Assembly: GCA_032718475.1 (NCBI GenBank)
Contig: JAUCBJ010009042.1
Location: 39,662-103,661 of the forward strand
Direction of reading: 5' to 3'
DNA length: 64,000 nt
Source: Nemertoderma westbladi
Taxonomy: Eukaryota; Animalia; Xenacoelomorpha
Of this stretch, positions 16,873 through 62,660 are shown piece after piece (the stretch's first letter is position 1; each line of letters starts with the position of its first letter). The notes below the pieces were generated by a model, which did no database searches, was not told the DNA's origin, and worked only from the letters and a program-made list of their open reading frames with translations. A program made the translations under genes and the position numbers.

Positions 16873-17039
16873 ATGTGCATACGCGATTGTTGCAAATTTA
16901 TCAAATTACTTATTATGCATGATAACTCCTTTGTAAACATCAGTAACAATATAATATCATAGCCAGTATATATTTAATTAAAATATCCACAAAATACAAC
17001 CCACAAACCCCCCGGAAGCGACAAATGATGTAACAATTA

Positions 17040-18649
17040 TGTTCGCGGTATTTCAACTTTCCATAACGCGAGTTGAATATTTTTGTATTTATTTAAAATT
17101 GATTATTCCGATATTACTACTGGGTGCGGGACCATGGGTTTTGGGCACATTCAATAAACTGGGGGCGATTTATGGGCGAACTTTGGGGCAACTTACAGGG
17201 TACGGGAATAATTTCATAGTTATAAGGGCCAGGGGGGGATGGAAAATGCAAGCAGTATTCAGGTTAGCCTGAGTACTATTAGGCCCTGGCCAACTTCCTG
17301 CTGCCTGTAGGGGTGGATTTGGTAATGCGCCAGGCCTAAAGGACAAGGACTGCCCTTAGCGGTCCCTGGCCAACAGCAGCCATTACGAGACTGAAAAGAA
17401 CTCGGACCGCTGACTGCTTGTGTCAGGGATTTGCGACGGGAAACGACGGCCCCTTAGTAGCCAAGCCGTTCTGGTTCTCGATGATCGTTCCCTTCGGGGT
17501 TCGTGAGAGGTGGAGCGGACACGCGAACGGGTGGCCAACTAACGACTGCCCCCTGACCTAAGCCGTACTGGTTCTCGATGACCGATCCCTTCGGGGTTCG
17601 CGAGGGGTGGGACGGACATTCGAAAGGGATGGCCACAGGACGGGTTTGACGAGAACTGCCCTTAGCGGTCTCTGGTCAACGGCAGCTACTACGAGACTGA
17701 AAAGAACTCGGAACGCTGACGCTTGTACTGGGATTTGCGACGGGAACCGACGACAGACCCCTTAGCCAAGCCGTACTGGTTCTCGATGATCGTTCCCTTC
17801 GGGGTTCGTGAGGGGTGGAACGGACACGCGATGGGGTCGAAAGACAAAGGACTAGACTCGACTAGACTCTACTGGCCTACCGACTGTTCGGAGCAGTTTC
17901 TCGGCTGCCGAAGCGACTACGAGCCTGAAAGGGACTCGGAAAGCCTAGGTGGTTGGGTTTCTGTGATGAAACGACGGACCCCTAGCCAAGCCGTTCTGGT
18001 TCTCGATGATCGAACCCTTCGGGGTTCGTGAGGGGTGGAACGGACACGCGAACGGGTCCACCGACACGACAGACTCCTAGCCAAGCCGTACTGGTTCTCG
18101 ATGACCGAACCCTTCGGGGTTCGAGAGGGGTGGTACGGATACGCGACAGAGTCTACCGACTGGACCGACCCTTAGCCAAGCCGTGCTGGTTCTCGATGAT
18201 CGTTCCCTTCGGGGTTCGTGAGGGGTGGAACGGACACGCAACAGGGTTGACCGACACCGACACTACGGCACTAAGACTAGGACCGAGGGAAAATCTGGGG
18301 AACATTAGGTAGGCTAAAATCTGAGCGAACAGTGGGTTATTAAATAATATACCGTAGGGATTTATATTATCGTGTATAATTATTGTGAATATTTGGTGTA
18401 TATTGATTTGGGGAAGCCCAAAATTATTCTTAATCAAGTTTCAATGATGTTGAACAGGTTTCAACTATAGGAAGTTACATTAAAGAGTATATCCAACTAA
18501 TGCAGCTTTTTATCAACCGCAAACTTGCATCTCAGAAATCATTCCTTCTCCAAAATCAATATCCGGTGACTGGCCGGGGCTCAGTGGTCTGTAAACTCAC
18601 GTCTCCAGCATCGGCGTTTTTCCCCCCTGGTGTTGGGATAACGGCAACA
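17040..18649 (+). repeat. E1 5' LTR
   Basis: TGTTCGCGG...GGCAACA. About 6 differences from the 3' LTR by eye. Confidence 0.96.
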
Positions 18650-18651
18650 AA

Positions 18652-18664
18652 ATTAAGAATAATT
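18652..18664 (+). promoter_or_regulatory. E1 putative self-priming PBS (ATTAAGAATAATT)
   Basis: No TGG tRNA PBS. Perfect complement of AATTATTCTTAAT at 18422-18434 in the LTR. Confidence 0.55.
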
Positions 18665-18942: not shown

Positions 18943-19134
18943 ATGGAAGTATCGATCACACCCATTGATATAATTCAAGTTGAGCCAGGAATCTGGCACG
19001 TCGAAGTTGAGGTACAAGGAACGAACGTTGGACAATTCAGGATTACTGTTCGGGTGGTCCAAGCTGAGTACAATACCTACGAGGAACTGTTTTACGACAT
19101 CGCGTATCTAGCCATCGACGAGGCGTTACAATGA
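18943..19134 (+). CDS. Small 63-aa ORF immediately upstream of E1 gag, overlapping its start (ATGA)
   Basis: ATG start, protein-like amphipathic pattern and stop/start overlap at 19131-19134. Confidence 0.35.
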   Translation: MEVSITPIDIIQVEPGIWHVEVEVQGTNVGQFRITVRVVQAEYNTYEELFYDIAYLAIDEALQ

Positions 19135-21689
19135 CAACAAATAACGTATCCGATACCGACGAGATGGATCACCACACAGACTCGGAAGCCGACGAGGTAC
19201 CAAACGTCAAGAACATGACCCGTCGGTTAGGGGCTCTTAAAGGCGGAGTAACCCGAGCGTATCAACGGATGGAGAAACAACTCAAGGGAGTCAAAACCCC
19301 CCTCAATGAGGTACAAACTCAGCTTCAAAGTATCCGAAATATCCTACAGCGGTACGAAAGAATGATACAGGCGTACCAAGAGCTCGTTCCCCCCACCGAT
19401 CAGGAAAACTACCCCAAGTTGGAAGAACACGTTGTACATCTAGATGGGTTCCGCAAACAACACCGGAGGACCCTCAGCCTTGTGAGAGGCTATGAGGAAC
19501 AGTATTACAAGAGGGCTGACGCGGAGTCAGTACGATCCTCCAGCATCAGGACAGCAGTACATCGTAAGAGAACGGGGTCCGCTAGAAATCAGCACTCCAG
19601 CGCTAGGAGCGAGATATCCGGCTCGGCGCGCAGTTCTCAAGGGGCGCCGCCACTCCGAGACCAACTGCGAGAACGGAAGGCATTAGCCCTCAAAGCTCGG
19701 ATGGAAGATGAGTATATTCAACTGCAAGCCGAGCAAGATGTATTAGCCGCCGAAACACAAAAGCGAGAGGCCGAACAAGCGGCCGAACGGCAGGCCGAAC
19801 AACGCGAACAGGAGGCCGAACAACATAGACGAGAAGCCGAACGGCAGGCCGAACAACGTGAACAGGAGGCCGAACAACATAGACGAGAGGCCGAACGACA
19901 GGCCGAACAACATAGACGAGAGGCCGAACGGCAGGCCGAACAACGTGAACAGGAGGCTGAACAACATAGACGAGAGGCCGAACAACATAGACGGGAGGAT
20001 GAACGACAGGCCGAACAACGCAAACAGGAGGCCGAACAACGCGGACGAGAGGCCGAACGAGAGATCGAACAACGTAAATGGGAAGCGGAAATGCGTAAAC
20101 AACACGCCGAGGCCCAAGCAATTCTTATCCACAAAAAGAATGCGGATATTGCAAAACTCGCAGAATACGAAGCCGCACTTATAGAATGAGATATTCAACT
20201 CTACGAGGACTGGGAAAGGGATATAGATCAGGAATATGAACCAATTCCGGTACCGGAGTTAGAAAAGTCATTTACACCAACAGCGGCGAAACCTCCGAAA
20301 CCCGAGATCCCGCCTACCAAACAGTCTACGCTATCGGCACAAGCCCCGGTGTTCCATCCCCCACCAGCTACGCTAAAGAATGAGGAACCTTATTTCCCAT
20401 CCAACACCACGACAGCGAGTGTACCCAAGTACGAGCCTGAAAGGGACTCGGAACGGGACGCCACTCCCCGATCTAACAACCTATTTACATCCACACCACA
20501 AACTCGTAGCCGCGTCATTATTAAAACTCCACCTATTATTGATCCATCAAGTATGGGAGTGAGTGCCAATAACTATAACCCTCCGAGTCACTCAAGTTCA
20601 GACGACGTCAGCATCATCCGGGCGTTGGAGAACCGCCTTGCCATGCCTAAGATGGAGATTCGCACCTTCGAAGGAGATCCCGTTGATTACCTCAGATTCA
20701 AGAAACGGTTCTTTGCGCAGATCGGATCAACGGACATAGCCGACGCACAGAAATTGGTATATTTATCGCAATACCTGGGTGACAAACCACGCAGAATTGT
20801 TGCATGTTTTGAAGGAGGTTCTCATGAGGCATACTATGACGCATGGAAAACTCTAGATAAAAGATACGGAAATACCGGAACTATAATTAATAAAACTCTA
20901 GAGAGACTGATACAGGACACGGGATCACTAGGGGACCCACAGAACATACAGGAATTCTCCGACTCTATGAAGGATGCCTACTATACTCTGAAACCCTTAA
21001 ATAAAGAGGACCAGGTGAACAACATTCTAAACCTCCGACAGATCGCCAAGAAGTTCCCCGGATGGCTACAAAGTAAGTGGGCTTATAAATGTGTAGATCT
21101 CCGGCGCAGACATCCAGATCGAGATCCTAGCTTCCTTGAAATGTCGGCATTCCTGGACGATATCTCCGAAGCCATGAATGACTCGATGTTTTCAAAACAA
21201 AGTCTCGCAAAGTTGGACGGAATAGAGAGCAACTCCAGGAGTAAGATAACCCCTCCGAAACCGAGATTCCGCCCCCCACCGGTAAGTACGATGGCCATTA
21301 CCATGGCTGAGGATTCCGACGACGAAGACTACGAGGAACCGACATCCGCCGAGGAATGGGCATGTTATCTCGCGAGTTGGGCACCCGAAAGGGAAGGCAT
21401 CACAAATTCCCTGCTCTGTCTCTTCTGTGGGGAGAAACATAAAGTGGAATTCTGCAGAAAGTTTCAGTTCGCCAAACTCGTCCCACGCTTCGAGGCGATA
21501 ATGAAACACCGAGGATGCTTCCGGTGTCTTGGAACAGGTCACTATGTTCGGGAGTGCGACCAAAGATCATGCTGTGCTGTCTGTAACGACCAACGCCATC
21601 ACACGCTCCTCCACATCCCCGCGAACTTCGATTTTACTACCCTTCCCTTTCGGATCGAAGCCAGTAACCAATATTTCGGCCACGATTAA
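19131..21689 (+). pseudogene. gag: E1 Gag (BEL/Pao type), one in-frame TGA at 20187-89
   Basis: ORFs 19131-20189 and 20349-21689 are in the same frame with an open linker. Motifs: FEGDPVDYLRF...KLVYLSQYL (DUF1759-like), CLFCGEKH...C, CFRCLGTGHYVREC and CAVCNDQRHHTLLH. N-terminal coiled-coil repeats are present. Confidence 0.9.
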
Positions 21690-24600
21690 TCTTATAAATC
21701 GCCGCTACATGGTTTTCGCAAAGGTAATCCCAGTAAGGATCCAAGGAGTCGGCAAATCTTTGACGACACTCGCGTTCCTCGATAACAGGTCTGACGGAAC
21801 CATCATCGACCGGGATTTCCTTGAGCAACTCGGCCTAGAATATGAACCTTGTAAACGGCCCATACAAACCATCACCGATAACAGAGAGGTAGAGTCCGGG
21901 GAGGTACAACTCCAGATGGAAGGAGTGATGAAGGGCTACGAAACGGCTAAGTTAACCATCAAGAACACCTTGGTACACACAGACCTCCGGGTGCGGTTCC
22001 GACAATCAGCCGAGTACGCCCCCCTCATACAATTAGACCGAGACGATGTAGACCTGAGGTGTCCGCAGTTGGACGTGAACCGTATCACCCTACTGATTGG
22101 ACTTGATACACCGGAACTACACATCCCCACCGGAGATATCGCTCGATCTATAAACCAGGATGATGGATTCTATGCTGAACGAACAATAATGGGATGGACA
22201 CTCTGCGGCATTAAGGAGGAAACTACGAACACCTATACCTACCTTCCTAAATGTCAGATTAAAGAGAATGTAACCTCTGTGGGTTATTGCTCAGCTTCAG
22301 ATCTTGACGAGGATTTGTTTCTGGAAACCGAGAAAACCCAACGAGAGATGACGAAATATTTTAATTTGGAGACCCAGGAGTTCGCGGAAAAGGACGAAAA
22401 CCCATCCGAAGAGGACCAATATTGTATGGACGTTCTCGACCAGGCCACGTTTAAAGACGGACATTGGTGTTCACCTATGTTATGGAAGGATCCAAACAAA
22501 CCAATGGCAAACAACGCCAGCATGGCACTTAGGCGACTTAAAGGGATTCTACGCCGGCTGAATGACCAACCCGAGATAAAGGAGAAATATAATACCGTAA
22601 TCCAAGGATATCTCGATGATGGATTAGCAGAAATGGTACCACGGAATGAACTGCAAGGTGGTGAAAGAACATATTATCTCCCAACCCACTATGTAGTAGA
22701 AGCCCGCAAAGGTGGGAAAATCCGAGTGGTAAATGATGCTGCTGCTATGTACCAGGGCGAATCCCTAAACAGTCAACTTTACACGGGACCCAACATATAT
22801 AGCACACTCATTGGCGTATTGATCAGGTTCAGGGAAAACCGGGTAGCATTCACCTATGACATCAAGGCCATGTTTCATCAAGTTCGTACGTTACCAAGAG
22901 ACGTTGTCTACGTATCCTATGGACGGATAAAACGCTTACTCAACAGGAGATTAGCCAACTCACGATAAAGGACGTAGACGTAATGCGTATGGTCGTCAGG
23001 ATCTTCGGCGCTAAGGACTCGCCGGTAGCATGCAGTGACATGCTAAAGAGGACGGCAACTATGTGCGAAAATGAGTTCCCTCCAACTGTCATAGAAACAA
23101 TTCGACGATGCTTCTACGTGGATGACGGATGCGCCGGCGCGGATAATGTGGATGAGGCATATCGGCTAGCAATGGGGATGGTAGAATGTCTAAAGAAAGG
23201 AGGGTTTCCGCTCGTGAAGTTCAGATCCCACGACAAAACACTTATGGAAAAGTTTCCGGAGGACATCCGGCTGGAAAATAACAAAATGTATTCGGAGGAT
23301 GTGGAACATCGTGTACTTGGGATTGAATGGGACATAGAATCAGACGAATTCATCTTCAAGTATAAACCCCTACCCAAGCCTATGACAAAAAGGGGATGTT
23401 TGTCGATAAAAAGCGCCATCTTCGACCCACTAAATTTCATATCTCCAGTAACCTTGGCCGGAATGAACCTGATTAAGGAAATGTGGATAGAAGGACTGGG
23501 ATGGGACGAAGAGCTCCCCCCATACCTCAGCGTCAAATGGAGAAAATGGACGGAGCAGCTCGAACACCTACATCTTATGCGGATACATAGACCGTTCTTC
23601 CTCGATAAGTTGCCCACCGATATCTTCCAGCTCCACACCTTTTCGCATGCTTCGAATACCGGAATCGGCGTAGTCACCTTCCTACGGAGACTAAGTAACG
23701 ATGGAAATGGCGATACAAGCTTCTTATTCTCCAAAGCAAAGACAGTATCCGGGGAATTCGTAGCAACGATCCCGAGACTCGAGCTACAAGCTGCAATTTG
23801 GGCAGTAAGACAGAATCGCATGGTCATGCGGAACCTACGGATCCCCATAGAATCTCAACACTTCTGGGTAGATTCGAGTATAGTTCTCTATTATCTCCAC
23901 TCTCCATCACGGCGTCACACCACGTTTGTTGCAAACCGAGCCACGGAGATTAAACAGTGTACCGGCCGAGAACAGTGGCATCACGTGAACGGGAAGGAAA
24001 ACCCAGCGGACTTATCAAGCCGAGGCGCCACCCCAAAACAACTCGGTAAAAGTAAACTCTGGCTTACAGGCCCGGAATTCCTACGGCAGCCACAGTTAAC
24101 ATGGAGTACCCGATTCGACCCCGAGCTCGATAGCGGAAAATACTCCGAGGACGATAAAGAGATCCGTAAAATCCATCGAAGCAACGCGGTGGAAATTTAT
24201 AGTTGTCTGACTGAGCCTGCAAAGGACTCGGGCAGGCACTATAACGTCGCGACGATCACTCAACTAGCGGCGTCTTTACATCGGTTGATCGAGCGAACTT
24301 CATCCATGAGACGGCTCGTCCACCACGTTATAACCCTTCGCAAGTTCCTACGGTGGAAAAACAACAAACCGATAGTTCAACGGAATATACAAGAACTCAT
24401 TATCGCGGAGAAGTGTATTGTTAGATATGTCCAGAAAGAAAGTTTCCCCGATGAATGGGAACAACTTAGTGCGGGCAAAACATTGAAACCGGACAGCCCA
24501 GTCTACCAACTGAGACCAATGATGGGAGAGGACGGACTGATCCGACTGAATACCCGGATGGCAAACGCCCCGGTCGAATATGAGGTTAAATACCCGGCGC

Positions 24601-25820
24601 TTCTGCCCGGAACGTCGACACTAGCTAAGCTATTAATTCTACAATGTCACGAGGACAACCACCACGCAGGACAGAATTGGATTATAGCTAATATAAGACA
24701 AAGATATTGGATCACCCACATCCAGCCACTGATCCGGAAAGTGTTGAAACGTTGCTTCACCTGCAGACGTTACCTAGCGCCACCAATCACCCAAAAGATG
24801 GCCGACTTACCAGCCACCCGTCTACAAGCGGATTCCCCACCATTCTACGTCACCGGAGTGGACTGTTTCGGACCGTTCACGGTTATTGAACGACGATCCA
24901 ACATCAAATGCTGGGGAGCCATCTTCACCTGCCTAAGTTCTAGGGCAATTTACCTAGATATCGTGGTAAATCTGACACAACACGCATTCATCAACGCTCT
25001 GCGTCGGTTCGTGGCGAACAACGGGACATGCCGCCACATGTATTCCGATAATGGTACAAACTTTGTGGGAGGAGAAAGAGAACTTAGAGAGGCGATCGAG
25101 GGATGGTTTACCGATAACACCGCATCCCAAGTCTGGAAGGAACACCAGATACAGTGGCACTTCCAGACCCCCTTAGCACCCCATACGAGCGGGGTATGGG
25201 AGAAACTGATCGACCTAGTGAAACGATCCATGCGCGTCGCTCTAGGCGATACCCGGGTAACCCATGACACCCTCCGCACAACATTCTGCGAGATCACGGC
25301 TACCCTGAACAACCGACCTATTGTCCCTATCCGCGACGACCCCACAGACCTGGAGCCCCTCACTCCTAACCACTTACTGGGGAGACCCAAAACCCATGTT
25401 CTCCCGGAAACCATGTTCCCGGATCCCAACGAGATCGCGAAACATACAAACTGGAAAAAGGCCCAAGCGTTGGCAGCGCATTGGTGGAGAATTTGGGCCC
25501 AGGAGTACCTCATAACCCTCCGGACCAGGAGGAAATGGAACAACACCTACCAGAACGTCGCAGTTGGCGACATGGTACTAGTTAAAGAAGATCTCAAAGA
25601 CCGCGTTCACTGGCCTGTGGCGCGGGTCGTGACCATACACCCAAGCAAAGACGGACTTGCGAGGACTGTGACGATACGAACGAAATCGGGCCACTACCAA
25701 CGCCCCATCCAAAAGCTGTGCCTTCTTGAAGGCAATGATAGCGGTGATTCTACGAGAGGTGATAAGATCCCTACTCAAGATCCTGCTGTGGACATTGGTG
25801 ACAATTACAAAACCGTGTAA
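21690..25820 (+). pseudogene. pol: E1 Pol (protease, RT, RNase H, integrase), frameshifted near 22900
   Basis: AFLDNRSDGT protease. RT motifs KIRVVNDA, DIKAMFHQ and FYVDD. Pao RNase H LHTFSHAS/TIPRLEL/NPADLSSRG. Integrase H-H-C-C, GVDCFGP, SDNGTNF and GVWEKLI. Confidence 0.92.
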
Positions 25821-26099
25821 CCCTTCTCATCATGTTGACAAACTCTTATAAAACTGTGATTTATCGACAACGAGTTATGGACCCCCCTTTAAACCAACTG
25901 TAACCACGCAATGGTATTTGTGTTTCCTCGTGCGTTATGTGGAGTCCAGCATCACCCTGCAGATGTTTCGACTGACGCAGGGTCGTTTATGCATTGTTTA
26001 CCCTGATTTTGGTCATCGGGACCAATGATATTGGATTATTGGAAATGGAAAAGATTTGAAGTGGAATTCATTGTATTCATTGCAGTATGTTATGTTGTC

Positions 26100-26511
26100 C
26101 GTTGCGTGCGCAGTTCGGGGCGTAGGCGGTGTAACGAGTCCAGCTGTAGATCCCGGATTGCCGCGCAACACCCCCTCTATCCCGTTATTCTGGTGGGTCC
26201 ATGGTGCATCCACGTGACTTCGACGATAGAGGGTTTTATGTTTCTCAGTCGCATTATTCTGGTGGGACCGTTGCGTGGATTTTGGGGCGTAGGCGGTGTA
26301 ACGAGTCCAGCTGTAGATCCCAGAATGTTGCGTAACCCCATCCCACATGACTTCGTCGACTGAGCTTTATGTTGTTGGGAGTGTTATTCTGGTGGGTCCC
26401 TGGTGCATCCACGTGACTTCACTCCCAGCGTCTTCATTGTCCGTTACGTGCGCAGTTTGGGGCGTAGGCGGTGTAACGAGTCCAGCTGTAGATCCCAGAT
26501 TGCCGCGTAAC
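26100..26511 (+). repeat. Three copies of a GC-rich structured repeat between E1 pol and ORF3
   Basis: Identical 38-nt core ggggcgtaggcggtgtaacgagtccagctgtagatccc at 26117, 26284 and 26459, each enclosed by complementary flanks. Confidence 0.85.
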
Positions 26512-27070
26512 ACCCCTTCCACGACAAAGATTAACCAAAGAAAATGATTGAATATAGTTGGAAACGATGAAAAGGATCAGACAACTCTGCTATAAACCTG
26601 AATGATGACGCGTATACTGATGAAAATGAAATGATGCGCACCATGGTGCTGCGCTTATAACCAATGATGATAGCCGGGGGGCTATAAACCCAATGATGAT
26701 GTGGAAATAAATAAATGTGAAATAAATGGTGGAACTAAATGTGTTGAAATATATGTGGAAATAAATGAAATGAGATGAAATAATAATGAAATGAAAAAAG
26801 ACAAAAAAAAGGTATAAAAAAGTCTAAAGAAAAGAATTAGAAAAAAGAAAAGGACAAAAAAGTCATAAAAAAAACTGGTTGGATATTATGTATAGCTATA
26901 GTAACTGTAAATGCTGAATGTATTAGCAATAAGATGATAGATGCCTATATAGCAATGTTATTAATAAACTGAATTAAATAAAAAACTGAATTATTCTGCT
27001 ATCGCTATAGTTTCAGACTTTCTGGACTTATAATTAACTGATCTAATTTGTAACGGATATAATCGTAAAT

Positions 27071-29671
27071 ATGGACCCAAATCGCCAAATTATCGGCGAA
27101 TTACGTAACACGATAGATCTACTGGAATATTCGCAACCCGGATCCCCTGACTTTGATACAAACTGGAGCACCCTGCTAAATGAGAACGTGCGAGTCATTA
27201 AATTCATCGGGCGAGAGGGACCGGATTCTAAGAATCTACGAGCCCTCCGGTTAGCCGATGCTAGTACGAGACTGAAAAGAACTCGGAACGCAAAGGCAAC
27301 CGGAGGGGACGATTCGTCGTTTTGGGAAACGTTCCGGCAGAGCGTCTACAGATCCCGATGTTTGATCTACGACAACGAGGGAAACGCGACGCCCACCTCG
27401 AAGGCGATTACGTTGGCGAGATGTCAGAGTTTCGTCGACGACAAGAGTACGTACCTCGCCCACTGGGGAAACCTGTCGGAGTGTACGGCGACGCTTCGAG
27501 AGGAACGCGTATCGATTATCCAAAACCGCGACGACTACCAGGAAAAGTACGGGGCGAAAGAATACGGTCGATCCTTAGTCGTCGTCCTCGGAACCCTGGA
27601 CGGTTTGGTACTGGTGTGCCGAATATTCCCGACACCCAGACAGGAAGTGCAGGCAGCCGGAGCGATCTGGTTGCTGCCTCCGGAAATCCAAAAGATCCTC
27701 TTCGACTTCGACGTCATTAAAATCGGGTCGGATATCAAGGCGGACGTCCGGAACGACTACGCGAACGCTCCTGCAGGAAGAAACCGACGAGACGACCTCA
27801 ACGCCCTTAGCCATTGCATCGACACTCAAACGCTACTAGCCTGGTTACGATTCGCCGAGTTCATGCGAGGATTCCAAGAGGTGAGACCGACGAAGTCCGG
27901 GATCGGCTACCTCGCTGTGCTAAACGGCGGTATCGACTTCAAACCCCAGAAATTCCGGGACTATAATAAAATATACGGTGGATACCCGGGATTGGAAATA
28001 AAAAGCGAGCGAGAGGGTCGATGGAAGGACGTTGATCGGAAGTGGACGATACACCAAAGGTGGGAGAATCCCGATAGACGGAACTACGTTTACGTTGTTA
28101 TGGAGTGCTACACCGTCGCTAAGTTTATCTGTAAAACTCTCGATAACCTTATTACGGCGGTCCCCCTTTCCTTTGTCGACTACGACTGGAACGAGGTTAT
28201 AAACCACGCGTTTAAAGCGGTCGAGAACATTACACCGGGAGAATCGAAAACGCCCGCCGTTATCGATTCCTGGGACGAGAGCGGACCTTACGACATCCCT
28301 ACGATTACCGAACTTCTCGGTGCGGAGGAGCCTCTGATCTCTTCGGAAGGAGAAGAGATATGGCTAAACGAGGGTGTTCTACTCTCCACCCCGAAGCGAC
28401 AACTCGAGCCGGAGGCCGCGTATGGACCGGCCGCCAAACGGGTTGCCTCGGCCGAACCGATGAAGAGAGCAGGCGTTTACACCCCACGCGGCTCCGGTAG
28501 CCCCGCGAGGGAGGTAGCCACTACAGCTGCATTGAGCGACTTCGGCGACATATGCCAACGGTTATCCCCGTATCCTTTCCCGGGTGGCGAAGATTGGTCG
28601 TCGGAGATCCCGAGTACCAGCCACCAACGGACCCGCTCAGCGATACTGGTCGAGGAGGGCCCCAGCGATGCGCCGACCCCCGACGATCTCCTCGGTTTCC
28701 CTCCGTCTAAAACCCCGGCACCTCTTCGCCGACCAGCGGTGGCTACTACACCCGCCGTTCCTCAGGACCCTATGCGACTAACCCGTTGGTACGCCGAGCA
28801 AACTGAATGGATCCACCGCCAGAAACGGTCATCCGAGTTGAGACCAGCGGGACACAAAGAAGGTTATCGGAGCGAGAACCTACTACGCAAAAGCCTAGCA
28901 TTCCGCGGGCTACCGACCACCGAGAATATTCCGAAGAGCGACCGACGACTCGAATACTACGTCGGCGTCCCGATTCCGATATTTCCTGGTCGAGAGATGC
29001 AGTTGGAGGTATGCGGCGACTGTGGTTCGGAGCAGTGCCCACGCAGCAGAAGGAATCGGGTTACCGATTCATGCCTCCAGCTCCTCGGGATACTCTATTG
29101 CCCATACTGCGCGACATCGGGCCACGACGTTTCCGTCTGCCCGATCCTTTATAACCTCTGCACCACGTGCGGTTTCCGTGGACATTCCTCTAGCCCCCGC
29201 TGCTATATCAAATGTCCAACCAAAGACGTTACCGCTATGGGCAATATGGTCATGTTTGAAACATACGCAAACAGCCACTTAAAGACCAAGATTCGGAGAA
29301 ACGCTCGGAATATCGCGCAGGAGATGGCGTGCGGATATTTCTCCTTCCCGGAACGCCTCCACACGTCGGCCACGCTACCTTTCCATTACGTGGATCTGCT
29401 ACTGAGCACCGGATTATTCGGTCCATTTGAAGTCATTAGACGATTATACTCGTATAAAGAGGAGTTCGGTGACGGAGAATGGTTCCTAGAGGCACGCAAG
29501 TCTGAGTTGGAAAGACGAACCGACATGATCCCTATGCCATCGAAAGGAAGAGCCGCCAGGAGACAAGCCGAAGCGTTACTCACGATGGATGTGGACGCTC
29601 CTCTACCAGCCATAGCGATCGATGAGAGTCGACGGGCGAAGAGACGAAAGGCGTATCAGAGAAAGAAATAG
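27071..29671 (+). CDS. E1 ORF3 (866 aa): DEDD 3'-5' exonuclease (WRN/Mut-7/EXD-like), disordered linker, CCHC zinc knuckles, basic tail
   Basis: ExoI YDNEG, ExoII LPPEIQKILFDFDVIKIGSDIKAD then CIDTQ and SGIGYLA, ExoIII-like W...YVVMEC. Knuckles CPYCATSGHDVSVC (CX2CX4HX4C) and CTTCGFRGHSSSPRC. C-terminus RRAKRRKAYQRKK. The ORF is intact. Confidence 0.8.
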   Translation: MDPNRQIIGELRNTIDLLEYSQPGSPDFDTNWSTLLNENVRVIKFIGREGPDSKNLRALRLADASTRLKRTRNAKATGGDDSSFWETFRQSVYRSRCLIYDNEGNATPTSKAITLARCQSFVDDKSTYLAHWGNLSECTATLREERVSIIQNRDDYQEKYGAKEYGRSLVVVLGTLDGLVLVCRIFPTPRQEVQAAGAIWLLPPEIQKILFDFDVIKIGSDIKADVRNDYANAPAGRNRRDDLNALSHCIDTQTLLAWLRFAEFMRGFQEVRPTKSGIGYLAVLNGGIDFKPQKFRDYNKIYGGYPGLEIKSEREGRWKDVDRKWTIHQRWENPDRRNYVYVVMECYTVAKFICKTLDNLITAVPLSFVDYDWNEVINHAFKAVENITPGESKTPAVIDSWDESGPYDIPTITELLGAEEPLISSEGEEIWLNEGVLLSTPKRQLEPEAAYGPAAKRVASAEPMKRAGVYTPRGSGSPAREVATTAALSDFGDICQRLSPYPFPGGEDWSSEIPSTSHQRTRSAILVEEGPSDAPTPDDLLGFPPSKTPAPLRRPAVATTPAVPQDPMRLTRWYAEQTEWIHRQKRSSELRPAGHKEGYRSENLLRKSLAFRGLPTTENIPKSDRRLEYYVGVPIPIFPGREMQLEVCGDCGSEQCPRSRRNRVTDSCLQLLGILYCPYCATSGHDVSVCPILYNLCTTCGFRGHSSSPRCYIKCPTKDVTAMGNMVMFETYANSHLKTKIRRNARNIAQEMACGYFSFPERLHTSATLPFHYVDLLLSTGLFGPFEVIRRLYSYKEEFGDGEWFLEARKSELERRTDMIPMPSKGRAARRQAEALLTMDVDAPLPAIAIDESRRAKRRKAYQRKK

Positions 29672-29827
29672 TGGATCGGGATATTCCAGGAACATTTATC
29701 GAACATTTATTTTTATACAAACTCTAGGCCAAATTAATTAAAAACTATGCAATATTAAATTTGGGTTTTTTATATTGGGAATGACCTACGCAAACTCAAT
29801 CGACCGACAGACTTCACGAAGGTCATT

Positions 29828-29835
29828 GGGGGGGA
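29828..29835 (+). promoter_or_regulatory. E1 polypurine tract
   Basis: GGGGGGGA ending 1 nt before the 3' LTR. Confidence 0.8.
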
Positions 29836-29836
29836 C

Positions 29837-31447
29837 TGTTCGCGGTATTTCAACTTTCCATAACGCGAGTTGAATATTTTTGTATTTATTTAAAATTGAT
29901 TATTCCGATATTACTACTGGGTGCGGGACCATGGGTTTTGGGCACATTCAATAAACTGGGGGCGATTTATGGGCGAACTTTGGGGCAACTTACAGGGTAC
30001 GGGAATAATTTCATAGTTATAAGGGCCAGGGGGGGATGGAAAATGCAAGCAGTATTCAGGTTAGCCTGAGTACTATTAGGCCCTGGCCAACTTCCTGCTG
30101 CCTGTAGGGGTGGATTTGGTAATGCGCCAGGCCTAAAGGACAAGGACTGCCCTTAGCGGTCCCTGGCCAACAGCAGCCATTACGAGACTGAAAAGAACTC
30201 GGACCGCTGACTGCTTGTGTCAGGGATTTGCGACGGGAAACGACGGCCCCTTAGTAGCCAAGCCGTTCTGGTTCTCGATGATCGTTCCCTTCGGGGTTCG
30301 TGAGGGGTGGAGCGGACACGCGAACGGGTGGCCAACTAACGACTGCCCCCTGACCTAAGCCGTACTGGTTCTCGATGACCGATCCCTTCGGGGTTCGCGA
30401 GGGGTGGGACGGACATGCGAAAGGGCTGGCCACAGGACGGGTTTGACGAGAACTGCCCTTAGCGGTCTCTGGTCAACGGCAGCTACTACGAGACTGAAAA
30501 GAACTCGGAACGCTGACTGCTTGTACTGGGATTTGCGACGGGAACCGACGACAGACCCCTTAGCCAAGCCGTACTGGTTCTCGATGATCGTTCCCTTCGG
30601 GGTTCGTGAGGGGTGGAACGGACACGCGATGGGGTCGAAAGACAAAGGACTAGACTCGACTAGACTCTACTGGCCTACCGACTGTTCGGAGCAGTTTCTC
30701 GGCTGCCGAAGCGACTACGAGCCTGAAAGGGACTCGGAAAGCCTAGGTGGTTGGGTTTCTGTGATGAAACGACGGACCCCTAGCCAAGCCGTTCTGGTTC
30801 TCGATGATCGAACCCTTCGGGGTTCGTGAGGGGTGGAACGGACACGCGAACGGGTCCACCGACACGACAGACTCCTAGCCAAGCCGTACTGGTTCTCGAT
30901 GACCGAACCCTTCGGGGTTCGAGAGGGGTGGTACGGATACGCGACAGAGTCTACCGACTGGACCGACCCTTAGCCAAGCCGTGCTGGTTCTCGATGATCG
31001 TTCCCTTCGGGGTTCGTGAGGGGTGGAACGGACACGCAACAGGGTCGACCGACACCGACACTACGGCACTAAGACTAGGACCGAGGGAAAATCTGGGGAA
31101 CATTAGGTAGGCTAAAATCTGAGCGAACAGTGGGTTATTAAATAATATACCGTAGGGATTTATATTATCGTGTATAATTATTGTGAATATTTGGTGTATA
31201 TTGATTTGGGGAAGCCCAAAATTATTCTTAATCAAGTTTCAATGATGTTGAACAGGTTTCAACTATAGGAAGTTACATTAAAGAGTATATCCAACTAATG
31301 CAGCTTTTTATCAACCGCAAACTTGCATCTCAGAAATCATTCCTTCTCCAAAATCAATATCCGGTGACTGGCCGGGGCTCAGTGGTCTGTAAAGTCACGT
31401 CTCCAGCATCGGCGTTTTTCCCCCCTGGTGTTGGGATAACGGCAACA
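29837..31447 (+). repeat. E1 3' LTR
   Basis: Near-identical to 17040-18649 and followed by TSD AATTA. Confidence 0.96.
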
Positions 31448-32174
31448 AATTAATTATTTAAAATAAATAGAACTGAATTTCTTTGCTAACATACTGTTTT
31501 ATTTTATGAGTTGACAAGCCGACCTTCAAGATTAAATTCTTAAAAGTCATCGTTGAGTTTTCAAAGTCGCTTAAATGTTTATATCCGATTTTTTAGCGTC
31601 GTTTATAATGCAAGATCGAGTTTTACCACTGAAATCCAGATAGGGGGAGGGGGGGGGGGGGGGGGGGGGGAACTGGACGCAATAAAAATTCATCCCTCTC
31701 CAGGGGAAATTCGACGCAAATAACAGCTGATTACTTTCAATAATAAACCTGTAACCTGCTCTATTGCGTTTAGTTTATTGTTTTGGTTAAAATAACGTGC
31801 TACTGTAACCTGCTCCTTTCCCTAAATTGAGAATTTAACATTGAGGCGGGATATTAATTCGCAAGGCGGGTTTTGCGTCGAGTCCCCCCCCCCCTGTCAC
31901 CTGAAATCTCAAAGATTGAATTCTCACATTGTTGACTGTTTTTTTTTGAGTCAGAAAAATAATAAAAATATAAAATGTCCCTTCATATATGTATTCATAC
32001 TGTACCATATCCAACATAATTACATTTATTCCAAAAATATAATTATTATTATATTTATTAATATTTGTTAGGGTCGGCATATTAAGTACAGTATTATAAA
32101 ATAATCATATAAAGATAAAGCTAATATAATGTTGGCTTTAGAAGCATTTGCAAACAATGTACTATATTTAGAAT

Positions 32175-35632: not shown

Positions 35633-36331
35633 TTATTTCTGGTTGTCGCTCGTATAACGCCTCCGCAAAAGTCTAAATTCACGTTTTAGTACATTTCGGT
35701 CACGAGTATGTTGAACCCGTATTTCTTCTATTATTTCTTGCATCTCGGGATTGCCAGTACATGCAGAATTCGATTTTGAGGTACCGTTACTCGGATTAGT
35801 ACTACTAGTGTTGGCACTATTAGCTGCAGTTCCTGAACGTATCGATTTACTGACGCTACTTGTTGAACTGCGGTCGATATTGATATCCAGTGTTTTGGAT
35901 CTTTTTCCACAACGCTTTTCCTTTTCTTTAGCAATTGGTATAGGCATATCGTTATCTACAACATCAGATGAATCACTATCATCGAATTTCTTTTGAATAC
36001 GAACACGTTTCCTCGGATTATCTAATATGGCTGTAACATCATCATCAGATTCATCATTTCCGTCTCCCATTATTACAACATTTGATACAAAATCGTGTAG
36101 CTCGTCTGTGCTATATTCATCCAACTTTTTTAGGAGATCATCAGCCACTGATTTTGAAGATATACTAATTATTTTTACAATATTTCCTCTTATTCGTACT
36201 GTGTGTCCAGCCTTCCACTGAAGTTTGTCAGTCAATGACAAACCTGACAATAGCCGGTGGTTAATGCCATACACACCGTACTGTGTCGTCGATGGCCAGT
36301 ACAACGCAAAGCAAATTCGATCGCAAGCCAT
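35633..36331 (-). CDS. 232-aa ORF, likely first exon of the CACTA accessory (BEN-domain) gene
   Basis: ATG start directly downstream of the transposase, with acidic/basic and Ser-rich linker and a coiled coil. A splice-donor-like g|gtaagt lies at about 35555-35561. Confidence 0.5.
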   Translation of the reverse strand: MACDRICFALYWPSTTQYGVYGINHRLLSGLSLTDKLQWKAGHTVRIRGNIVKIISISSKSVADDLLKKLDEYSTDELHDFVSNVVIMGDGNDESDDDVTAILDNPRKRVRIQKKFDDSDSSDVVDNDMPIPIAKEKEKRCGKRSKTLDINIDRSSTSSVSKSIRSGTAANSANTSSTNPSNGTSKSNSACTGNPEMQEIIEEIRVQHTRDRNVLKREFRLLRRRYTSDNQK

Positions 36332-36433
36332 TTGTGTAATAATAGTTATAAGGCTCTATAAGTTATAAGCAAAGGCAAAATTACAGTATATTATCAGCCT
36401 AAATATAACAAGCCAGACCAGAATGTGCCCTAA

Positions 36434-37364
36434 TTAATTGTGCATATATGAAGTTGGTTCAGGAATTAAAATAATTTCATCTTCGAGTAAACAAAAAGGT
36501 GATTTAACAGCAACACACCTACACAGAATATCTGCAACTTTTTTATCTGAATGAAAATTCTTGCCTTCATCTTCTTGACTTACTATATTAAAAATTATAT
36601 TTTGTGTTGCTAAGACAGAAAACTTACTCTTTAAAGATTGTGTCTTTAGCGCCTTTTCAATTATGTCACCAGTTTTTTTCAGTGGTTGATAAACAACACT
36701 TGTTGGTAATCTGGTTGTAAAATCTAGTATGAAAGTCATTATCTTACCAAAAGTATCATCTTTAAATTTAACAAAATAGCTACATGACTTCCGTTTGTGC
36801 GTATATGAAAAATAATGCACTGTGACACCACTTGGGCTTACAATTCTGGAACAAGATTTTCCATCTTCGGAGATATCCAAAGGTGTATAATTCGCACTGT
36901 GATGAGTTTGAGTGAACAGCTGACTATAGAAAGAATCTTAGAAATGAAAGTATCATGTTTAGAGTGATACTTGAGAAACTCAATCCCTGCGTTTCTATAT
37001 GCTGTTATCTGACTCAGTATTACAGATACTGGGGATCCTTTTCTGTACATTAGCTTAATGAATGACCCCATATGGCTTTCAAATGAAAACATATTTGCCA
37101 CACTAAGGGGACATGGAATCTGTGCAATGTGATGCCGCAACAAATGAAAGTTAATGACACATATAGAAACTCCAAATGTGGCCATCAAATGGTCTGTGGA
37201 ATCTTTTAAGAACATAGAAGCCATCTCTCTATTATCATTTGATATTGAATCACAGCTTAATATATGCAGAGCAATACTTAGTTCTAATAAGCAAATCCTT
37301 ATAGGATCCGAAACATAATAAGATACAATTGGCACTAAGTAGTATAATGCGAGAAATCTGAATT
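36434..37364 (-). pseudogene. 3' part of an EnSpm/CACTA (CMC) transposase, frameshifted and interrupted by E2
   Basis: Reading from the E2 junction: (E)FRFLALYYLVP...INFHLLRHH...PLSVANMFSFESHMG, matching the EFRxFLLY and NxHxLxH...GPL...FxFES motifs. The C-terminal SYFVKFKDDTFGKIMTF is also typical. Confidence 0.75.
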
Positions 37365-38623
37365 TGTAAAAGCTTTTGTGGGATATAACTGGCCCTTTTG
37401 CTTTGCAATCCAGTTTCCCCCCAGGCGCTGGAATACTCTAAAAAGCTCTCTAACTCGAATGATGCAAAGCGACCGGCTGATTGGCTGATTTGTTATACGA
37501 GGGGCTCTTTACTATGTTCTATCGGCCAACCAGAGCTATAGCAGCAGAGTATGCAACCAGGACAACCGAGCGGAGTGACTCATTTTGTGTGTTGGCCAAG
37601 GGTTGCAAAATTCCTGATAGTTCGGCATTTAGATATTCGTGGAACTTGTGGAATCTGGTGTTCTGCCAATGAGAGCTATTCCTCTCTGTGTAAAAGATAC
37701 CTGCAACGGTGTTAGGGACAGTAGCAGTTTTTTGTGATACTGTTTTGTTGTTTCTATCTAGGCCAGGAACACCGGCTCTAGAATCAATTCGTTTCAGACT
37801 TTAGAAGAAACATTAGTAGGCTTAGATTATAGAACGTATAACTGTTATCAGTTCAACTCGGCCCAATTATCGGCACAGTCCAGTCTTAACGGCACATACA
37901 TTGTCATATCATATCTTAACCTACCGTCTTAATGCTTTTTACTGTTGTTATTATTTTGTATCAGTTGGTTGAATATTATTTGGAGAACATCTATAAAGAA
38001 CCCAAATTTCCCAATTTTCTTGATACACTACAGGTTAGAGAGACAGGTTACATATAGCGATTGCGACTTATATTATTGTGGTTTGTAGTGAATTTAATGC
38101 TATTTGATAAGCACTACATGAGTCAATTGCTGTTCTCTTTATATATGATAAAATTCATTGACAGTCGGCAAATTAGTGTGCAGTATTGTGCGTTACCGGT
38201 AGTGTGCATGATTGTGACTGATAACTAAGCATTTCCTAAAGAATGCGCCTCATACGTGAATCATAAGCCTTCCCGACTTACCGTTGTGTTTAGTATAAGT
38301 CATATCTCTGTTTACCTAGATAGAGCGCCACGTCCTAAAGGAACTGTTAATATTTCCCGAAAGTGAATAATATTAGTCAGAAATTATTTATTAACAATCA
38401 ATCGAATAATACAGTAAGCTTACACTGCAATAACAATCTAAGCCCTCCGAATCCAGTCTCCCGGGTATATCCAGCGGGTGAATGGACGCGCACTAGACTG
38501 GCTTCGACTAATGTTGTGTTTATTGGTATTAAATATTTGTCATTTACTAAAGTCTATTTATAAACCAAAAGACATATAAATTTTGGCAGGTTAAACTGCT
38601 AAAGGTCTTCAAAAGCGCGTACA
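37365..38623 (+). repeat. E2 5' LTR
   Basis: TGTAAAAGC...GCGTACA. About 3 substitutions versus 62739-63997. Confidence 0.96.
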
Positions 38624-58424: not shown

Positions 58425-61400
58425 ATGACGGAGTTGATAGAAGATGATCTTGGTATTAGGGAGCGATATACTCGACCTTTACAAGCATTTGTGGATAGCT
58501 TAATATGCGGTGAAGCCGATCCCACCATTACAGAGGACGATGGTCGTTATATCGAACCGCCGATGTCCCAAGAGCAACTTGCGCGTGAATTGGATTATCG
58601 AAAAGAAAATTCACCGCTCGCTATACGAATCGTAATGGTACGTATATGGACTTCTTAACTACCGGCCATCCTATCGATTTACATGATACGGACGATGTAG
58701 ATACAGAGAGGGAAATGGTTCTATTTAAATATCATACCCAGCGGAGTCGTAATGATAAACCGAGAATAGATCACGAAAATTCTATTCGTAATAGACTGGA
58801 AAGAGAAAACGTTGAAGAACCGGATAAACGCATCGACTTCAACGAATACCTAGAATTTTTGAGAGAAACCTATCTCAACATCGCCAGTCAGCAGAACCTA
58901 GAGACTCGATATCCTCAAGGTATACATCATGACCCTGTGGTAGAACTCAAACGGCTCTATTTCACGATGATGTATCTTACCGCCGATCGTCCACTACCTG
59001 TTATCCCGGATAGTTTTGAACAAATGGAAGAATATTGCAAAACTGGAGAACGATCACCCGCGTTTCCTCTACAGGACGTACGTCTTTGGTATTATTGTGA
59101 CGAATGCCCTAGACCCAACCAACAAACTGAAAGACATAAACATCCGCGGAGACGTTGCGCTAAACACAGCTTTACGCGTTACACTTACGGGAGTTTCGAG
59201 CGAAACCTGTTCGACGTACCACCTACGATCGCTCGTCTTAAACGATCACTGAATAAACCCATGATCAGAGTTCCGGAATACTCGGTCAGGCCTCCTCATT
59301 CCCTAGTGAGACCTCAAACTCTTGATCCTAACAGTATCACTGATCCTCCCGAACTATATTCCCTGTTCAAAGACTTAGTGTTACCCGAACAATTAATCGG
59401 TGGTGCTCCGGTAGTGGGTTCGTTAGACATTCGCCCATCCTACTTAGCCGGATTGGGACGCGGGCAGCTAATATCGCCCTTTGATCCTTACAATCGTCCA
59501 GGATTAAACCCGATGCAACCCGCCACGGAAGTCGAGGAGAGCGTTATAAGAAACGCTTTAGACGCTATTCGACAGAAGATCGGAAAGGGAACACAAGATT
59601 GTTTAGAGAAACGTAAATTACAACAACAAGTCCAATCGGTGAAGGAGTTAGCCTTGCCACAGTTCGATAGAGAAATCCAAAACCTCGAGGAGGACATCGA
59701 GCTTGGACGCACGTATTCTCTACAAGAATTTTTAGATGAACGCTTACAGAGACAAGCGGAAGAAAATCTACTCGAAGAGAAACACACGAAAATGGACGAG
59801 AGAGAAGAAGCCGCTTTAGCCCAACCTGAAGCTCAAATCCTTATGACGGATCTCTACTCTAAAACCATCCGTCATCCCTCGATGATTCCACATTTCGGAG
59901 ACAAACTCTTCGCGACGATACAACCTCAACCGGTTGATATCAGTACAGGATCGCAAAATCTTATCGCTGACGCCCCTATGTTACAGCGTCCGCCGATCGA
60001 GGCCGCTCGTGTTGACGGTATACTCGTTGAACCTCCGGACAATCGAGCGGATCTTGTCCGTCGTATGGTACACGATGTCAACATATGCGCTAGACCTTTA
60101 CAGAACTCGTTTTATGGGATTAAAGACCACCCTTATTACGTTAATCTGACTCAATATTATATGGTAAAACCAGAAGACCCGACGCATAATTTAAAGTTTC
60201 TACCACTAATAAATCCTCTAGACATTGTCGAACTCGAACAATTGCAGAAACATCTGGATCAGTTAGTAAAGGTAAACTCATTTAGAAAACCATATAACAT
60301 TTCTCGAATCGAGAAGGATATAGAACCTCCTTATAATCTCGATGGATTTATTAAAACTCGATTAGTCCATTGGAATCTAGATGTATTATTTGAAGAAGAG
60401 AAAATACAAAGATATGGAAATGTGGAGACGTATACCACTCGGCACATGAAGTATAGTGATCTCCCTGACGCTAACCAATGCGCCACCTTGTGGCATCCAG
60501 TAGGGATGACCCTAGAGAACGCCACCAAGGAGTGGAATGAAACTCTTAATGTTATTGAGATGTATGGAGTTGTCACCTACGATAATGAAGGTAGCGTTCC
60601 GGTCGGAGAACTAGGAACTACGCGCATGATCCACATACGCGGATTAGCTGGTTCTACCCACGTGTTTACTCGAGCGTGTTCCGACGTGATTGATTATTCC
60701 TTTGAAACTCTCACCGAAACACAAAAGAATCTCCGACATGGACAATTCGAACTCGCGCAGCGTTACGTCATTGACACCGAACGCAAACCGGCCATGGGTA
60801 TCGATGGATCGATGTTACCCCAGCCCGTACTCGAGATGTTGTTCAACGAAAGAATCCTTAAAATCGGCTCAGCTGTTTATGGAGATCTCCAAAACGACTT
60901 TCGGAATATGGAGAACATTCCATACCCTTTCGTTGATACTCAGCTGATTGCTCCCTGGGCAGAAGGTCGAGGTTTCTTCCGCACCATGTATGCTAATACG
61001 TCTAGCAACATTACAAAGGTGCAACGAACTTCCATCGGACATCTTGCCTTTCAGGAATACGGATGGAATTTCAAAGTCGGAAATCCCATCAACTATCAAC
61101 AAGTATACGGAGACCATTATTCTCGATTATACTTTGATGGACCATTGACCGCACCTGGCGCCGTGTATAGCTTCATGAGTGTTCCACTCCGTCCCTCCTT
61201 AGCTATCTACACGATCTTTGAAAACACCGCACTTGCCGGTTGGCTAGCCGATGTGTGCAGTCGTACTATACGCGCCCATCCATTAATACTTGGGACCAAA
61301 CTCGCTAAGCTAGATGAACATAATAAATTCATCCGCTTCGAATGTTTCCGGCGATTTTTAACCCCGTTCCGCAACGTGGATAGCCAATTTAAAGACCGCG

Positions 61401-62660
61401 CTTTGACCCAGCTCAGCCTAAGAAACTCAGCTGCAGAGAAGTTGGATAGCGCTGGATTCGCCATTTTCAAAGAGATTTGTATATAGAACTTGCACTCCTC
61501 TGTTATACAAAGACCTCGAATCCCCACAGGTTATTCTGTCGTGGAAATTCAGACAATAGGTCCACCTGAAGAGACAGACACGCCCACCTCAGCTATGCAC
61601 TTGGAAGAAGAACCAATATGTCTAGAATCTGAGGAGATTCAGCCTATCGCGCCCCGGAACAGCGACAACGATTACATCATAGAATGGTATCAAGGTCCAC
61701 AGTGTCTCACTGCATACGATTATCGACATGCCAACTATGTTTCTAGGCAACGTTGTCGGTTATGCGCATCGAGAGACCATGATACGCCCATGGACACAAA
61801 CGTCCGCTGTTCCTATTTCCAAGAACAACCGACGATGGAAATTTATTGCGCATATTGCAGACTCAATAACTTGCATATTTTTGCGGTTTGCCCTCAATTT
61901 ATGACTCAATGTCACCATTGTCAACTAAAGGGACACGCCAGTTTCGATTGCCCTTTTAATCGCGATTTGGAAAGCGTAGATGAAATGATCACACTACGTT
62001 ACATCAGAGCTTGGGAAGCGAACGCTGATTTACATTGTGATTCGCGCCATCGTTATTATCCTGGACGCGCTTACGAAGGAGTTTATGCGTTCCATCCTTA
62101 TCTATTCGCTTCTGTCGAACAGAAATCACGCATATCGAGTTACGAACTACTGAAGCGCGTCGGAGAATGTATTTCAACCAAATTTGTACGCAAATTTCTC
62201 AGGAGTGTTAATCCTAGCGACCTTCATTCCTATAACTTAATCAATTATATCCGTCAGGATCCGGACTATGGAGACTTATTTGTTAACTCACACCCCGAGT
62301 TACAGGAAGTATATCGACGGCCTTACGAATACCGAGCCCGCGAACGCGAGTTGGAAAGAACCATTAAACCCCGGAGGTTTCTAACTGCCTATGGTCCACC
62401 CACGGCTCTCGTTCAGAGCGGCTGTCTTAAAACGAGCTCTTAAAGCCGTTAGACCCCTCTCCCCCGACGTTGATGTCAATCAACCCGGCACTTCGACTGG
62501 CGGATACACCGACCATAATCCTACACCCTCTGATGCAATTATATTGCACCCTTCACCCAGGAGTTATAGCCCTCCTTGTAAAGTGGCTCGCCCCAAAGAG
62601 AAAAGGACTCTGGCTAGCTTTAAAAAACTGCGTAAACGCCGTCCGCGTAAGAAAGACTAA
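58425..62660 (+). pseudogene. E2 ORF3 (about 1400 aa if repaired): long N-terminal region, DEDD 3'-5' exonuclease, CCHC zinc knuckles, basic tail
   Basis: Pieces 58425-58658 (frameshift), 58646-61486 (in-frame TAG), 61490-62443 (frameshift) and 62391-62660. Motifs YDNEG, LPQPVLEMLFNERILKIGSAVYGD, FVDTQ, TSIGHLA, PLRPSLAIYTIFEN. Knuckles CAYCRLNNLHIFAVC and CHHCQLKGHASFDC. Tail KKLRKRRPRKKD. Confidence 0.78.

Follow-up and report, generated by a model that had tools for sequence, protein, structure and literature searches.

The 64,000-nucleotide (nt) stretch of Nemertoderma westbladi DNA analyzed here (the window; contig JAUCBJ010009042.1) contains a long terminal repeat (LTR) retrotransposon, E1, with a third open reading frame (ORF3) behind pol. 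ORF3 runs from an ATG at 27071 to a stop at 29671 on the + strand and encodes 866 amino acids (aa) without an internal stop; at the local base composition, an open frame this long has a chance probability of ~10^-15.5. The original prediction, made from the sequence, placed this uninterrupted frame between the integrase and the polypurine tract and 3′ LTR of a BEL/Pao element and read it as an intact DEDD exonuclease joined to zinc knuckles. Its placement is borne out by the end of the pol frame at 25820, the G tract at 29828–29835 and the start of the 3′ LTR at 29837.

A young BEL/Pao element with a third open reading frame

The features of E1 are as follows.

17035..17039, no strand: target-site duplication AATTA, 5 bp, with its second copy at 31448–31452 (flank comparison, empty-site contigs)
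17040..18650, +: 5′ LTR, 1611 nt (comparison with the 3′ LTR)
19131..21689, +: gag frame with an in-frame stop at 20187–20189 (DUF1759, E 3e-15; zf-CCHC weak)
21505..25820, +: pol, encoding protease, reverse transcriptase (RT), RNase H and integrase in two frames (Pfam domains, frames)
25821..27070, +: non-coding pol–ORF3 spacer of 1.25 kb with three short repeats and an A-rich tract (sequence)
27071..29671, +: ORF3, intact (frame; 33 of the 40 listed variants synonymous, see below)
29828..29835, +: polypurine tract, a short G run (sequence)
29837..31447, +: 3′ LTR (LTR comparison)

E1 (17040–31447) is a young BEL/Pao LTR retrotransposon in which ORF3 lies between the integrase and the 3′ LTR. 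The two LTRs, 1611 nt each and with TG...CA ends, are 99.6% alike (5 mismatches and 2 one-base gaps). In two of the four sequencing runs (X1 and X4), contigs pass directly from 17034 to 31448 and represent the empty site; the insertion is therefore recent and not fixed. The domain order is that of BEL/Pao elements, as originally proposed: DUF1759, Asp_protease_2 (weak), Peptidase_A17 (E 3e-36), Integrase_H2C2 (E 2e-8) and DUF5641 (E 1e-28). The frame changes near 21505–21689 and 22860–22968. A YVDD motif is visible in the pol frame, and the RT, split across frames, gives no RVT_1 match. No dUTPase was matched in E1 by Pfam, a scan of E1 with Rfam gave 0 matches at E ≤ 1, and a separate search found no tRNA genes. 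Short tandem repeats follow the 5′ LTR, where other copies skip ~50–90 nt.

The spacer in front of ORF3 contains three imperfect ~60-nt GC-rich units followed by an A-rich tract (26119–26500, +), and a TTTCAG lies ~55 nt upstream of the ORF3 ATG. The repeats, the tract and the TTTCAG are candidate promoter or splice signals, and the spacer likely holds a promoter or splice acceptor of ORF3's own.

Fold and active site of the ORF3 protein

A search of 1.84 billion protein representatives with ORF3 gave four matches and no close cellular homologue. Three of the matches are true relatives (P0002, P0004 and P0005), environmental ENA proteins known here as protein sequences alone; the fourth, P0003, is a repeat protein aligned over 32 residues and was discarded as a chance match. 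With the ORF3 of E2, another BEL/Pao family of the window (see below), the ORF3-type sequences number five and are 21–31% identical. P0002 shares with E1 ORF3 both the nuclease region (E 5e-16) and the knuckle/C-terminal block (E 3e-11), and knuckles accompany the nuclease domain in all three sequences with a long enough C-terminus (E1, E2 and P0002). The layout of E1 ORF3 is as follows.

27308..28165, +: predicted DEDD-fold exonuclease domain, about aa 80–365, with a ~55-aa insertion past the first strand (hhalign, family profile, fold of the homologue)
28181..28990, +: acidic Pro/Ser/Thr/Ala-rich linker, aa 371–640, poorly conserved (composition; no significant alignment to relatives)
29012..29203, +: CCHC knuckles, one degenerate (aa 648–669) and two regular (aa 677–690 and 697–711) (motif positions; homology to P0002 and E2)
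29249..29419, +: conserved block past the knuckles, FE.YA...GYF.FP...LPF.Y..LL (common to P0002 and partly to E2)
29627..29668, +: basic tail (sequence, composition)

The motifs, tandem knuckles and basic tail described in the original prediction were all found in place: YDNEG at aa 100–104 (27368–27382), LLPPEI at aa 201, KIGSDIKAD at aa 217–225, IDTQ at aa 250, GIGYLA at aa 277 and YVVMEC at aa 341. The regular knuckles read CX2CX4HX4C (aa 677) and CX2CX4HX5C (aa 697) and are homologous to those of P0002 (E 3e-11) and E2 (E 3e-6). The linker is likely disordered, to judge from its composition, and the basic tail is a possible nuclear localization signal. The block behind the knuckles belongs to no named family, and the ESM Atlas yields for it only knuckle leads below 0.9.

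ORF3 occupies the position of env, and it was said to have neither a signal peptide nor a transmembrane helix. One 19-residue window, aa 168–186, reaches a hydropathy of 2.08, which exceeds the usual membrane threshold (the five highest windows all overlap there; elsewhere the values are at most 1.61), but this stretch aligns with two β-strands in the model of the homologue P0002. Since the sole strongly hydrophobic window corresponds to a β-hairpin of the nuclease, ORF3 gives no indication of being an Env, and the absence of membrane segments is upheld. No features of a retroelement Env were found in ORF3, nor any fusogen match in Pfam and PDB sequence searches.

The ORF3 family is predicted to have the DEDD-type, RNase H-like DnaQ fold, on the basis of the P0002 model together with a weak profile match. 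A profile of P0002, P0004, P0005 and E2 matched three PDB entries at E ≤ 5, EXD2 (0.04), human WRN (0.24) and mouse WRN (1.6), all of which carry the ExoII and ExoIII stretches in order. E1 aligns with this four-relative profile over the middle of the domain (hhalign, 98.9%, E 2e-17). Against PF01612, P0002 scores 11.9 bits (E 0.2) vs a Pfam cut-off of 23.6, and E1 and E2 give no match. The model of the P0002 nuclease domain has a predicted local distance difference test (pLDDT) score of 64.6 and a predicted template modeling (pTM) score of 0.66. The leading Foldseek matches were to EXD2, Egalitarian, Exd1, trypanosome RNase D, RICE1 and Nibbler (best E 3e-5; 24 chains at E ≤ 0.001). VIA-align ranked a diDNase at Z 11.6 (root-mean-square deviation (rmsd) 3.8 Å over 154 residues), Nibbler at 10.7, RNase D and Exd1 at 10.2 and WRN at 10.0; these neighbors (NrnC/diDNase, Nibbler, RNase D, WRN) are effectively tied at Z 9.9–11.6, with rmsd of 3.7–4.3 Å over 148–168 residues and 12–20% identity. 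In the ESM Atlas, the features of the P0002 domain (not those of E1) retrieved PF01612 clusters in 25 of 30 matches, the best at 0.94; the three top matches (0.94–0.95) are unnamed fungal clusters.

The proposed catalytic residues of E1 ORF3 are the following.

27371..27379, +: ExoI, D101-N-E103 (best register for the helix and strand block of the relatives, z 5.8, or 5.2 without the E2 row)
27743..27745, +: ExoII, D225 (aligned with the D of WRN 'GIEGD', which we take to be WRN's ExoII aspartate)
28091..28105, +: ExoIII, Y341-V-V-M-E345, with E for the canonical D (best register, z 4.6; aligned with WRN 'YAATD')

ExoI is D-x-E in all five sequences, followed in E1 by the ~55-aa insertion. An alternative register for ExoI of E1 at D155, obtained in two of three MAFFT modes, gives D-Y-Q without a match to the preceding helix and was rejected. 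The ExoII position is D in four sequences and E in P0004. The canonical Y-x-x-x-D of ExoIII is replaced in E1 by YxxxE, which makes ORF3 a DEDE variant of the fold and not a canonical DEDDy member. The 'intact DEDD' of the original prediction thus holds for the fold, through the family profile and the P0002 model, and fails at the fourth acid, which is E in E1 and in three of its four relatives. Nevertheless, acids at all four catalytic positions and the ExoIII tyrosine are kept in 5/5 sequences, and the retention of four acids across 21–31% identity suggests a working metal site under selection.

Compared with cellular enzymes, ORF3 resembles the WRN/EXD2/Nibbler(Mut-7)/RNase D group (PF01612) in its fold and ExoI-II-III order, and the signatures LP..l..lL.d..v.KvG...D and W....L...Q..Y are common to both. 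It is unlike this group in its sub-cut-off Pfam score, the ExoIII glutamate, the 55-aa insertion past ExoI (in E1) and its location in a mobile element. Euglenozoan proteins that combine an exonuclease with zf-CCHC provide a further likeness, though as a lead only (ESM Atlas cluster with PF01612 in 100% and zf-CCHC in 61%, score 0.86); the RNase D of T. brucei, which trims small guide RNAs, matches the P0002 model with a Foldseek E of 8e-4 and a Z of 9.5. The euglenozoan proteins differ in being cellular genes from a distant kingdom, without a sequence-level link to ORF3.

Wider searches added no members or donors. Word-based protein searches with ORF3 region 80–400 confirmed 0 of 2515 candidates; profile A3 recovered only P0002 among 7989, and profile A4, directed at longer proteins, recovered P0002 and P0005 alone among 7503. 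Pattern matches in metagenome scans numbered 35 for P0001 and 182 for P0002, and none was confirmed; a phage tblastn gave two insignificant matches. A viral fold library returned generic giant-virus and phage exonucleases only, and no donor.

Selection among copies and a second family

ORF3 is a multicopy gene. Short contigs matching E1 ORF3 number 2950, 2078 and 1471 in three deep DNA runs, two of which come from one sample. They leave none of the 30 bins of ORF3 uncovered, and hundreds are <90% identical. A further run, X5, with another species label, a depth of 3–5 and possibly made from RNA, was left out. Among the best-supported 40 of 276 variable places, an unphased sample that is not a codon-model estimate, 33 variants are synonymous vs 11.9 expected from the types of change, a number reached in 0 of 200,000 simulations. 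These 40 variants give a rough omega of 0.09. The excess persists in those at intermediate frequency (21 of 24 synonymous vs 7.0 expected), and all 12 that fall in the nuclease domain are synonymous. Five indels are listed, all in single contigs of a shallow run and none for the three deep runs. ORF3 is under purifying selection among copies, so that both its presence in other copies and its non-neutral evolution, on which the original prediction depended, are confirmed.

The second family provides an independent occurrence of the gene.

58589..62443, +: ORF3 of the BEL/Pao family E2 (26% identical over 111 aa to the E1 nuclease, E 2e-8)

E2 (37365–64000, +) is also young, with 3 mismatches in 1259 LTR bases, and has stops at 45197, 47546 and 61484. 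Its LTRs start at 37365 and 62739, its pol is 35–43% identical to that of E1, and its ORF3 has the same position within the element. YDNEG lies at 60578–60592 and the knuckles at 61847–61951, with the in-frame stop (61484–61486) between the two parts. The frame is also longer at the N-terminus by ~640 residues, which include a Cys/His motif and match nothing in Pfam. The original prediction pointed out that ORF3 is intact while gag and pol of E1 are broken. This describes the copy correctly but cannot be taken as a sign of function: an inserted copy accumulates damage neutrally, and a stop interrupts the ORF3 of E2.

A third BEL/Pao-like element (49010–56805, −) is nested in E2 right behind pol, with a 5-bp duplication (ACGTC) and LTRs of 1076 nt that differ by 2 mismatches. 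It has no third ORF of at least 150 aa, which places ORF3 outside the core replication cycle. The GC content is 0.545 for E1 ORF3 vs 0.49–0.53 for E1 gag and pol, and 0.45 for E2 ORF3 vs 0.44–0.47 for E2; each ORF3 is thus close to its own element, as fits long residence. The many copies, the counterpart in E2, the selection and the element-like GC together indicate an old, selected accessory gene.

These data leave little room for ORF3 as a functionless passenger that the element picked up from its host by accident, a view that is already largely refuted and that we consider highly improbable. The slightly higher GC of ORF3 in E1 and the stop in the E2 copy would fit it. The synonymous excess, the lack of listed indels in the deep runs, the homologous ORF3 in two families with such divergent pol genes and the failure to find a close cellular homologue among the representatives searched all contradict it. 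Conversely, we regard it as very probable that ORF3 is a functional DEDD-fold accessory gene.

E1 also contains two kinds of repeated RNA hairpin. Hairpins that fit a kink-turn pattern, which we take to be a C-stem, a 3-nt bulge, tandem GA pairs and a UUCG loop, occur six times in each LTR (17455–18246 and 30252–31044, +). The 5′ LTR has 6 matches vs 0.068 expected, and the other 62 kb scanned has 1; 91% of cells pair, and covariation is not above that of shuffles (356/500). They would be putative sites for Snu13/15.5K-type proteins, without an Rfam match. The second is a 21-nt bulged hairpin at nine sites, all in sense orientation: three per LTR and one each in gag, pol and ORF3.

17385, 17691, 17919, 20431, 24211, 27266, 30182, 30488 and 30717, +: 21-nt bulged hairpin (motif scan, 9 vs 0.03 expected)

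Three of its pairs are changed on both sides, and its covariation score is reached by 0/500 shuffles, with the compensatory variation in the outer stem; the inner loop presumably resembles a loop-E motif. The hairpin is a possible packaging or localization signal, and its motif has no match in E2.

Elsewhere in the window, three ORF fragments at 35633–37437 (−) resemble a broken transposase gene, putatively of the CACTA/EnSpm type. Satellite arrays of 49/53-nt units and a 12-nt repeat array occupy 6008–16404, and a 1.5-kb duplication links 1–1518 and 13242–14761 (98.7%). The elements thus sit in repeat-rich DNA.

Proposed function and its alternatives

The conserved acids make it probable that the ORF3 protein is catalytic. 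We tentatively propose, with a probability of roughly 0.4, that it is a knuckle-tethered 3′–5′ RNase that blunts host small-RNA silencing of the element. ORF3 would be made from its own subgenomic message, starting from the spacer, and the zinc knuckles would hold the protein on RNA. The D-E-D-E site would still bind two metals and support two-metal 3′–5′ cleavage. The enzyme would then chew unprotected 3′ ends, such as those of double-stranded by-products, sliced element RNA and unmethylated small-RNA precursors, and would thereby lower the output of silencing RNAs directed at the element. As a separate ORF behind pol, ORF3 can be likened in its place to the retroviral accessory genes that counter host defense. 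A viral precedent is the Lassa NP exonuclease, which digests double-stranded RNA according to the accessible part of PMC3429428.

Several points weigh against this proposal. Pfam and PDB sequence searches with E1 ORF3 alone gave no exonuclease match, so that its assignment as an exonuclease rests on homologues; the profile E-values that link these to EXD2 and WRN are themselves weak. The AlphaFold model of E1 ORF3, from a two-sequence alignment, is unusable (pLDDT 33). The RNase H/DEDD fold anticipated in the original prediction is accordingly recovered through the homologues and the P0002 model, and not in the searches and model of E1 itself. ExoI of E1 is displaced 55 aa by the insertion and was placed by alignment scores, with a different position in two of the three MAFFT modes. 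At the fourth acidic position, four of the five sequences have E and only P0005 has D, and our literature search, which included D501E, found no paper showing an active ExoIII-E site. Mature piRNAs (PIWI-interacting RNAs) bear a 2′-O-methyl group that blocks such enzymes. Close structural neighbors of the P0002 model include Exd1, called catalytically inactive (PMC5408684), and Egalitarian (Egl), which binds stem-loops (accessible part of PMC13186709). Finally, the present sequence evidence would fit activity on nucleic acids of the element itself as well as an anti-silencing role.

In the former case, the protein would be an active nuclease that works in the particle on replication intermediates, trimming the tRNA primer or RNA ends or removing mismatched 3′ ends of complementary DNA. 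The catalytic and fold evidence is the same as for the anti-silencing RNase, the fold has members active on DNA (WRN, Pol I proofreading domains, diDNases), and CCHC knuckles are the means by which nucleocapsids bind genomic RNA. Processing of the 3′ ends of element RNAs has also been proposed for rotifer ORFs (PMC5408684). Such a role nevertheless appears unlikely: ORF3 is not fused to Gag-Pol and would need a separate packaging route, and the nested BEL/Pao element does without it.

The structural neighbors raise another possibility, an RNA-binding adaptor with weak or no activity, in which the fold and knuckles would grip stem-loops of the element's RNA to export, localize, package or shield it. 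Egalitarian and Exd1 are top structural neighbors of the P0002 model; Egalitarian–RNA complexes, one with the I-factor localization signal, are among the top Foldseek matches. In the accessible part of PMC13186709, bulged stem-loops, among them the one in the I-factor retrotransposon, are bound by Egl, with its exonuclease-homology domain helping to enclose them. The replacement of D by E at ExoIII in 4/5 sequences and the covarying bulged hairpin repeated nine times on the sense strand of E1 point the same way. However, pseudo-nucleases usually lose their acids, whereas all four positions are acidic in 5/5 sequences; E2 has ORF3 but no hairpin match, so the hairpin is not a shared partner; and active enzymes match the fold as well as Egl does. 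ORF3 is also unlike Egalitarian and Exd1 in that it retains its four acids, uses knuckles and has no LOTUS-like or Lsm domain that we could find. We consider the adaptor rather improbable.

The idea of an exonuclease ORF3 is itself already in print. The bdelloid rotifer LTR elements Juno1/2 and Vesta2/5 and the Athena/Terminon retroelements carry a DEDDy ORF3 in which DEDD is changed to DEED (PMC5408684), which runs counter to the original statement that no description of this architecture was known. The activity of the rotifer proteins is unproven (PMC5408684); two reviews (PMC6431247 and PMC5718144) restate this account of the rotifer ORFs. By description, and not by sequence, E1 ORF3 is like the Juno/Vesta ORF3 in being a separate DEDD-fold ORF behind pol, inside the LTRs and in the env position, and they share an altered acidic motif, the lack of a membrane segment and nearly the same proposed roles. 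The Juno and Vesta elements are gypsy-like and dUTPase-bearing and have DEED, whereas E1 belongs to BEL/Pao and has DEDE and no dUTPase match. 'Pao' appears in PMC5408684 only in an author's name. In E1 ORF3 the nuclease is fused to tandem CCHC knuckles and, at the C-terminus, to a conserved block, whereas the rotifer paper describes a Cys-His-Cys motif in two ORFs only. Selection is shown for E1 ORF3; in the rotifer study, env and GDSL ORFs were the only ones examined for variation, which appeared neutral (PMC5408684).

Within BEL/Pao, known extra ORFs are mainly env-like, as the original prediction held: Roo and mosquito elements with a Chuviridae-like glycoprotein carry env in the accessible parts of PMC3118150 and PMC13524379. 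These elements resemble E1 in superfamily and in the presence and position of a third ORF, but encode membrane fusogens. The word 'exonuclease' is absent from the accessible main texts of this BEL/Pao survey (PMC3118150) and 2026 env-element study (PMC13524379). No BEL/Pao element with an exonuclease ORF was found in the literature searched, which lay outside Repbase, Dfam, GyDB, most subscription journals and supplements; the supplement of PMC3118150, which contains BEL/Pao sequences, could hold unrecognized relatives of ORF3. Within the scope of this search, four aspects of the exonuclease ORF3 are new: its BEL/Pao host, its fusion to knuckles, its DEDE site and the evidence that it is under selection.

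Exonuclease cargo is thereby extended from rotifer elements to BEL/Pao, with evidence of selection that was absent from the rotifer study, and ORF3 gives enzymologists a naturally occurring DEDE site to study. To our knowledge, LTR retrotransposons of animals are generally regarded as passive targets of piRNAs and small interfering RNAs (siRNAs), and counter-measures encoded by the elements are scarcely known; our literature search on such counter-measures found no paper. With an intact, soluble-looking and strongly conserved gene for a nuclease fold, in a recently mobile family of many copies, one recombinant protein could test whether enzymes for anti-silencing or RNA processing are encoded by retrotransposons. 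That an old BEL/Pao lineage encodes a knuckle-tethered DEDE small-RNA nuclease, a transposon-made suppressor of piRNA/siRNA silencing, is at present doubtful. If true, it would imply, together with the rotifer DEED ORFs, that LTR retrotransposons have repeatedly captured DEDD nucleases against RNA silencing.

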